From contig JBFWSA010000004.1 in assembly GCA_050248615.1 (NCBI GenBank), forward strand, positions 13,775-77,774: a DNA stretch of 64,000 bases. Direction: 5' to 3'. This DNA is from Simkaniaceae bacterium (GTDB lineage Bacteria > Chlamydiota > Chlamydiia > Chlamydiales > Simkaniaceae). The translations under genes were made by a program, and so were the position numbers. Below, one piece after another: positions 51,038 through 51,271 of this stretch (the stretch's first letter is position 1; the number at the start of each line of letters is the position of its first letter). The notes beneath the pieces are model-generated. The model searched no databases. It was given only the letters and a program-made list of their open reading frames with translations, and was not told the DNA's origin.

Positions 51038-51200
51038 CCGCCCCGAGCACTTTTAGATTTCTTTGGGTTTTTTCTTAGCATGCGTTAGATAAGAACTGGA
51101 AGCGTGCAGGCAAGGTGCAAGTCACCTTGTCAAACAATGACAGTTCTTAGATGGCGTATGATAAGGGAAAAAACAAGAAATCTAAAAGTGCTCGGGGCGG
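51038..51200. mobile_element. 163-bp palindromic element whose right arm includes the tRNA-Leu 3' end
   Basis: Perfect 26-bp IR CCGCCCCGAGCACTTTTAGATTTCTT at 51038-51063 and 51175-51200. Confidence 0.8.
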
Positions 51201-51271
51201 GACTCGAACCCGCACGGGATTGCTCCCAAGGGATTTTAAGTCCCTTGTGTCTACCATTCCACCACCCGAGC
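51189..51271 (-). tRNA. tRNA-Leu (anticodon TAA), CCA not encoded
   Basis: GCTCGGG acceptor stem, D-arm GGAATGGTAGAC, loop CTTAAAA, long variable arm, GGTTCGAGTCC. Confidence 0.95.

Follow-up and report, generated by a model that had tools for sequence, protein, structure and literature searches.

A gene-less foldback unit at tRNA 3' ends in Simkaniaceae and other Chlamydiota, a candidate site-specific insertion element

Results

Features around the tRNA-Leu(TAA) gene

All coordinates are positions in the window, the 64,000-nt stretch of DNA analysed here. The genome to which it belongs (G000) has 2.04 Mb, a GC content of 43% and is 96% complete. The following features lie around the tRNA gene:

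51322..52056, minus strand: conserved chlamydial gene between gapA and the tRNA, a fixed upstream neighbour without Pfam match, which we take to be CT504-like
51189..51271, minus strand: tRNA-Leu(TAA) gene, no encoded CCA; putative target site
51189..51200, minus strand: last 12 nt of tRNA-Leu(TAA) (3' T-stem bases, 3' strand of the acceptor stem, discriminator); proximal direct copy, which would pair with 51038-51049 when integrated
51050..51188, plus strand: rod body of 139 nt with covarying arms; best fold on the plus strand, antisense to the tRNA
51088..51151, plus strand: conserved core with tandem GA/GA loops (51088-89 with 51150-51, 51099-100 with 51139-40)
within the conserved core, plus strand: third 2x2 loop, GA/GA in most relatives
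51109-51131, plus strand: apical 9-bp stem-loop of the conserved core
51038..51049, plus strand: last 12 nt of the tRNA in inverted form, matching at 12/12 positions here; proposed guide or pairing segment
51028..51037, minus strand: direct copy of the tRNA end, degenerate, with TC in place of GA
50978..50999, plus strand: hairpin with T-run that resembles a terminator, lying about 30 nt upstream of the rod (rod strand); flank, outside the unit
50447..50848, minus strand: ORF of 133 aa with a Bro-N domain, the gene that opens the variable region behind the rod; flank

The arms 51038-51063 and 51175-51200 are complementary in 26/26 bp, with 111 nt between them and a span of 163 nt. The right arm is made of the last 12 nt of the tRNA (51189-51200) and a 14-nt trailer (51175-51188). 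An earlier note, made from the letters of this DNA, had reported both the inverted repeat of the tRNA-Leu end and the missing CCA of the tRNA (51189-51271, minus strand), and both are real. The rod folds far better than its shuffled versions, with z = -13.7 as DNA and -8.6 as RNA, and no shuffle was as good. Like a MITE, it is short, non-coding and a foldback.

Among the 37 tRNA and tmRNA genes of G000, tRNA-Leu(TAA) alone has a perfect inverted copy longer than 9 nt behind it. In a comparison of 36 tRNAs, the one other to beat 100 shuffles was tRNA-Gly(GCC) (score 14, against 16 at Leu, at +215 nt), which we take as chance. BLAST against G000 found no second copy of the element or of its termini, the best other terminus match being 18/20 with an E-value of 2.7. 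Chance homology, with identical termini on many non-tRNA copies, had been raised in the earlier note; it is ruled out by BLAST, the survey of tRNA ends and a genome-wide foldback scan.

Some observations concern the flank. The Bro-N ORF is short here, with 133 aa against 309 aa for a related ORF at the same locus in G012, and other strains have a 9-nt in-frame insertion after 50528. The segment 50966-51032, a three-way structure that includes a terminator-like hairpin, overlaps the direct copy and is single in the genome.

Layout and fold of the unit

All intact units have the same order on the tRNA strand: tRNA end, arm, core, arm, inverted tRNA end, 0 to 4 nt, and direct tRNA end. From the discriminator to the start of the inverted copy there are 138-142 nt in Leu units and 140-141 nt in three Tyr units. 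The inverted copy matches the host's own tRNA at 9-12/12 positions in 11 units, and variants of the host tRNA are mirrored in it (G054, G001, G092 and L107).

The repeat had been described as inverted, not direct, and set against the direct repeats of integrase-type insertion. This contrast was mistaken, since a degenerate direct copy at 51028-51037 abuts the inverted one. Its identity to the tRNA end is 9/9 in G084, 8/9 in L107 and 6-7/9 in nine other Leu units. In the window it is 6/9, or 7/9 with G>T at 51028, where T is the consensus base and is present in 3/3 DNA runs. A direct copy also abuts the inverted copy in Tyr units. Across units it measures 9-14 nt; no empty site was found with which to compare it as a putative target duplication, and it often carries a shared GA-to-TC change, common to three families while the arms diverge. 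This change gives a small hairpin on the opposite strand with a tandem G-A pair. In the window, 51028-51037 on the plus strand is predicted to form this hairpin with 51041-51048, closing the unit into a dumbbell, and the hairpin stays pairable across the variants of the direct copy.

The stretch between direct copies is predicted to fold as a closed dumbbell of 157-164 nt in 17/17 units (11 plus 6), with the rod strand folding better. A seventh further unit, with a different rod, has 107 nt. In the 11 Leu units, both-side changes are seen in 41/65 rod pairs and 91% of cells are paired, against 39-53% in slid controls; these figures are inflated by the non-independence of paired columns, and the structure was derived from the very sequences tested.

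The strand antisense to the tRNA folds 15-33 kcal/mol better in 11/11 Leu units. G-U pairs number 69 on the rod strand and 16 on the tRNA strand, and the GA/GA loop is present in all 11, a bias in G-U and GA/GA that reads the same for DNA and for RNA.

Distribution in relatives

Comparison of the locus in relatives, as suggested with the first description of the repeat, used DNA and covariance-model searches. Intact homologues lie directly behind tRNA-Leu(TAA) in 7/39 family genomes (G000, G001, G012, G044, G046, G047 and G054), and the other 32/39 have no intact rod there. Truncated rods were found in G022 and G001(a), and stubs of 24 nt in G045 and 13 nt in G048. Other families also carry the unit: at least G084, G092, G141, G243 and G072 have further Leu units, in samples of 151 genomes each with 17-21 candidates scored per genome. 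Among 17-21 candidates scored per genome, family f36 gave no rod match in 27 genomes.

A tRNA-anchored pattern gave 7 matches in GTDB genomes, six of them labelled chlamydial and one being the same DNA as G092. In metagenomes it gave 5 matches, namely one full, two partial, one duplicate (L116, of G001) and one by chance (L115); the last two are left out of the counts. Viral contigs gave 0 matches and no contig with the unit. A lone match of the core pattern in viral contigs looks coding and was set aside as unrelated.

With the core model, the rod was also found behind tRNA-Tyr(GTA) in G084, G047 and G012, and in a displaced position in G048. The suggestion that such elements target tRNA ends is supported: several families have the same rod at tRNA-Leu(TAA) and tRNA-Tyr(GTA), and its inverted copy lies 138-142 nt from the tRNA end. 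Model R1 over 32 tRNA-Leu loci recovered just three partial copies. In G230, a different 107-nt rod has the same layout, with a tandem duplication starting from the direct copy.

Other hairpins were seen at these loci. Behind tRNA-Leu in G031 (L036) and G214 (L143), short ones repeat the T arm in full and the acceptor end in inverted form, with a 22-nt hairpin interrupting the copy. Behind tRNA-Tyr in G000 (C24, about 31900-32134), a newer hairpin of about 95 nt closes on the tRNA's last bases and is followed by a decayed remnant of a Tyr-type rod core.

Foldbacks of the genome and IS982 ends

G000 has 155 long foldbacks, 125 of them of 160-174 nt, in 15 multi-copy families plus 5 singletons. 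A stricter scan found 119 in G000 and 0 in the shuffled genome. Seen as a whole, they form at least 15 families with unlike termini and one size class, mutually nested. The window itself holds four (about 10168-10335, 12371-12540, 19842-20007 and 28272-28466) and a short one at 53326-53376.

The earlier note had proposed that such elements can copy flanking sequence into the opposite arm. As a general property this is not supported: contiguous complementarity to the flank is no higher than in shuffled pairings in 7/7 foldback families, one of the seven reaching p=0.048 on a second flank measure. Ordinary direct target duplications are present in 4/7 families, being TA, any 2 nt, 3 nt or 4-5 nt where clear.

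The rod core recurs elsewhere: an IS982 element has it in its left end, and G000 has it in a foldback family with ACCC ends. In G123 there is a full palindrome with the same core, closed by an IS982-type terminus. Loci L076, L137, L136, L139, L140, L078 and L080 have a same-core rod just inside an ACCC-type terminus; in L076 an IS982 transposase gene comes next after the rod, and mirroring of the terminus gives a full palindrome in L078. In a census, GA/GA loops occur in 48/136 foldbacks on the better strand and in 0 on the other, a partly circular count, since the better strand is itself chosen by GA/GA.

Foldbacks of the ACCC type also adjoin two other tRNA-Leu genes (G000:C20:40652-40813, and behind tRNA-Leu(TAG) in C22), without copies of the tRNA end. 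An unrelated, near-perfect, TA-ended foldback of 165 nt begins exactly at the tRNA-Leu discriminator in G033 (L035), followed by a partial second copy.

Evidence on mobility

Units are stacked or in tandem at one tRNA in L107, G141, G001 and G230, and their arms differ in L107, G141 and G001. Two rod subtypes are each spread over more than one host genus. In the rod tree, a clade of G001b, G046 and G012 (97/99) spans three host genera, and sister hosts have unlike rod subtypes (G046/L113 and G012/G022). AU tests rejected host-genus clades with p from 7e-5 to 0.008, values inflated by the paired columns. Stacked units and host-incongruent subtypes suggest mobility. Against it speak the deepest splits of the rod tree, which agree with the host tree, and the single copy per tRNA in most genomes.

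Rods or half-rods lie beside island attachment fragments in G001a, G047, L112 and L114, so that islands alone could shuffle rod subtypes. Copies also ride passively on islands that integrate at tRNA-Leu(TAA). This tRNA is an island hot spot (L014, L019, L025, L026, L028, L034, L039, L040 and L069), where duplications run from the anticodon arm over about 55 nt, integrase-like ORFs occur, and a short paired repeat resembling arm-type sites recurs at about 55 nt behind the tRNA.

No empty site was recovered, as none of 7 post-unit flanks matched any of the 31 examined trailers of tRNAs without the unit or with a truncated one. No joint skipping the rod was seen, and the rod is present in 3/3 DNA runs of the window's organism, where the copy is probably dormant. 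Nor was a mobiliser common to carriers found. The recombinases of G000 are XerD and XerC-like only; Y1 transposase is absent from 5/7 intact family carriers, reverse transcriptase (RT) from 4/5 carriers, IS110 from 3/5 and IS982 from 2/5.

Transcription and tRNA processing

In folding models, the cloverleaf is preferred until the transcript runs about 140 nt past the tRNA. When it reaches 51038, the pairing probability of the acceptor stem drops from at least 0.87 to 0.0 and the rod is favoured by 13.5 kcal/mol. The only terminator-like sites on the minus strand (51028-51045) lie beyond the inverted copy.

Contigs from RNA libraries run about 35 nt past the tRNA end, as sequence without strand or transcript ends. 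In two studies the RNA contigs end at 51153 and 51154, leaving about 104 nt to the inverted copy, at a point where the DNA contig continues, which is a weak hint. In 5 RNA runs, 50886-51152 is uncovered by contigs; as contigs cannot show absence, this is not counted as evidence. No promoter-like site for the rod was found on the plus strand at the locus.

Discussion

Comparison with known systems

The E. coli tRNA-linked repeats (TLRs) are the closest published kind to the rod unit. They were first described in 1978, and their function is still unsettled (PMC8144298). As presented there, these repeats (tyrT repeats or RtT, rrA/rrB/rrF) are gene-less structured units of about 170-180 nt behind a tRNA, which may be tandem and end in an exact direct copy of the tRNA 3' end of 18-19 bp (PMC8144298). 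The rod unit also lies directly downstream of a tRNA, is gene-less, ends in a direct copy and can be tandem. It differs in that its direct copy has 9-10 nt and is degenerate (6-9/9) where that of the TLRs is identical over 18-19 bp, and in that TLRs are branched instead of forming one rod and have no abutting inverted copy (3-5/10). Rfam gave no match of the rod unit to RtT. The E. coli tyrT and tyrV units (L159) fold better antisense (-72 vs -65 and -64 vs -51) and have an internal inverted match of 8-9/12 to the tRNA end; the tyrT region has an exact direct copy without a rod.

The attC site is an imperfect palindrome that acts as a single folded strand and has unpaired bases that are conserved; it forms arrays and is resolved by replication (PMC4792948). 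The rod unit resembles attC, or an empty cassette, in its one favoured folded strand, direct-inverted-direct core arrangement and stacking, and differs by having no payload and a tRNA end as its core site. No IntI was found in G000 (96% complete), both recombinases being far below the TIGR02249 cut-off. The core motif of attC is RYYYAAC...GTTRRRY; the rod unit has no paired RYYYAAC/GTTRRRY and one internal GTTRRRY.

For CTXphi attP(+), the published account gives a forked hairpin of about 150 nt from two inverted target-like sites, no own recombinase, and an integration that leaves one functional and two non-functional site copies (PMC3089051). The rod layout has a hairpin of similar length and three site copies, but its sites are tRNA ends and not dif, and there is no phage body; no pair of inverted dif-like sites was found in the rod unit, the best XerD-arm match being 7/11. 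By analogy, the rod unit may work like attC or CTXphi attP, without being a member of either.

The foldback MITEs of G000 (TA-, NN-, CTAG- and ACCC-ended), which we presume to be ERIC/RUP/Correia-like, and the rods of IS982 left ends share size class, rod fold and GA/GA loops with the unit, and IS982-type foldbacks also share its core. The rod unit lacks their fixed-sequence terminal inverted repeat, its termini varying with the host tRNA, and is single-copy at a fixed site instead of dispersed. Integrase islands at tRNA-Leu(TAA) in the same family share locus and direct repeat of tRNA sequence; their duplications take in about 55 nt, starting from the anticodon arm, and they may carry integrase genes, whereas the rod repeats about 10 nt and is non-coding.

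For REP/REPIN-RAYT, neither a GTAG, GGAG or CGTC tag in the unit nor PF01797 in G000 was found. 6S RNA (RF00013) had no match at the rod, the best E-value elsewhere in the search being 0.45; it has a central bubble between long stems, while the rod's apical stem has just 9 bp. Membership in TLR, MITE, attC, IMEX, REP or 6S fails on the defining features. In C. trachomatis, CTIG504 is given as a 75-nt RNA in the accessible part of its source (PMC3061062); it was considered as a counterpart of the rod and dropped, since that text describes a 75-nt RNA and shows no link. The accessible parts of PMC3061062, PMC3184786 and bioRxiv 2024.07.17.603846 have no direct bearing on the rod unit. No published description of it was found in a search that had most subscription journals and supplements outside its range.

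A candidate insertion element of tRNA ends

The units have one layout and a fixed size, covarying arms and a bias to the antisense strand; they occur at two tRNA types and can be stacked. The feature in the window is one copy of a gene-less foldback unit of about 160 nt at Chlamydiota tRNA 3' ends. We put it at about an even chance that this unit represents an insertion element, non-autonomous and site-specific. One exchange and replication of a folded single strand would leave such a layout, and a tRNA-end-targeting element is therefore favoured.

In such a mechanism, the unit between direct copies would leave as a single-stranded closed dumbbell, probably of DNA. Within it, the inverted copy may pair with the element's own end through tandem G-A pairs, or alternatively, and perfectly, with the chromosomal tRNA end. 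If one strand were exchanged at the tRNA's final GCA or directly behind it, with resolution through replication as in attC and CTXphi attP, exactly the observed layout and an intact tRNA would result. The enzyme would be supplied in trans, host Xer or a tyrosine recombinase from a passing island that targets tRNAs being the most plausible sources; none was identified.

Alternative explanations

A reading that we regard as rather unlikely takes the rod as a resident, convergent, structured ncRNA of the plus strand, whose closing stem has the antisense of the tRNA end as its 3' strand and the "inverted copy" as a co-evolving 5' strand, patchiness coming from loss and hitch-hiking on islands. The strand bias, G-U pairs and invariant tandem GA loops speak for it, as do sequence and length conserved across families and a deep tree congruent with hosts, and the stubs in G022, G001a and G045 (13-nt in G048) fit the decay of an old resident. 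Yet Rfam gave no match, the 6S model included, the plus strand has a terminator-like hairpin just upstream instead of a promoter-like site, the upstream region is unrelated between carriers, and the unit is absent from 27/27 f36 genomes among the 17-21 candidates scored in each. Direct copy, stacked units and the independent Tyr version would be left unexplained. In another reading, an ordinary foldback MITE with an IS982-type core came to lie beside the tRNA, and a template switch in replication brought the tRNA end into it as a direct-inverted-direct triplication, its match since maintained by arm-to-arm conversion, with no dedicated targeting. We consider this unlikely. The same core does occur in IS982 left ends and in the G123 palindrome with its IS982-type terminus, G000 is rich in foldbacks of the same size, tRNA-Leu(TAA) is an insertion hot spot (with the unrelated TA-ended rod at the discriminator in G033), and no mobiliser was found. 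Against this stand the absence of flank copying in all seven MITE families (0/7) and the need for independent origins of one geometry at Leu, at Tyr and in the different rod of G230. Conversion gives perfect pairs, but in several units G-U pairs are still numerous and mismatches fixed, and three families share the GA-to-TC change of the direct copy despite their diverging arms.

In a model built on the earlier note's proposal of an antisense strand that competes with the acceptor and T stems, a sense read-through precursor refolds, its inverted copy invading those stems and controlling 3' processing of the CCA-less tRNA. The thermodynamic part of this stands: the refolded state is predicted to be 13.5 kcal/mol more stable, with an acceptor-stem probability of 0.0 past 51038, the sole minus-strand terminator-like sites lie beyond the inverted copy, and RNA-library contigs pass the tRNA end by about 35 nt. 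The functional part fares worse, since the cloverleaf is favoured up to about 140 nt past the tRNA, conserved features favour the opposite strand in 11/11 units, in all of which the sense strand folds worse, and 32/39 family genomes do without an intact rod here. Rods also lie behind non-functional att fragments (G047, G001b and L112), and the RNA contigs end at 51153/51154 where DNA continues, a weak hint. A regulator of tRNA processing is an unlikely role for the rod, and we hold this explanation as a whole to be very improbable. A retroviral-type primer-binding site was rejected, as nothing in the inverted copy is complementary to CCA and 4/5 carriers lack RT.

Significance

Returning to the insertion element of tRNA ends, a more far-reaching version of it is tentatively put forward. 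The unit would be a minimal, protein-free mobile element, a covalently closed, single-stranded dumbbell of about 160 nt, whose site is chosen by Watson-Crick pairing of a built-in guide of 10-12 nt with the tRNA 3' end and which is retargeted by a change of guide (Leu vs Tyr). The class to which it belongs would extend across phyla, with this unit as its chlamydial branch, and might account for the E. coli tRNA-linked repeats as well.

The simple rod geometry, the natural variants at two tRNAs and the sharp predictions on strand, junction and guide bases make the origin of tRNA-linked repeats testable. If pairing of the guide holds true, it would be a new route of base-pair-directed, site-specific insertion. 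If it does not, the rod would still be a structured element, conserved and previously undescribed, at a hot spot for islands in environmental chlamydiae.
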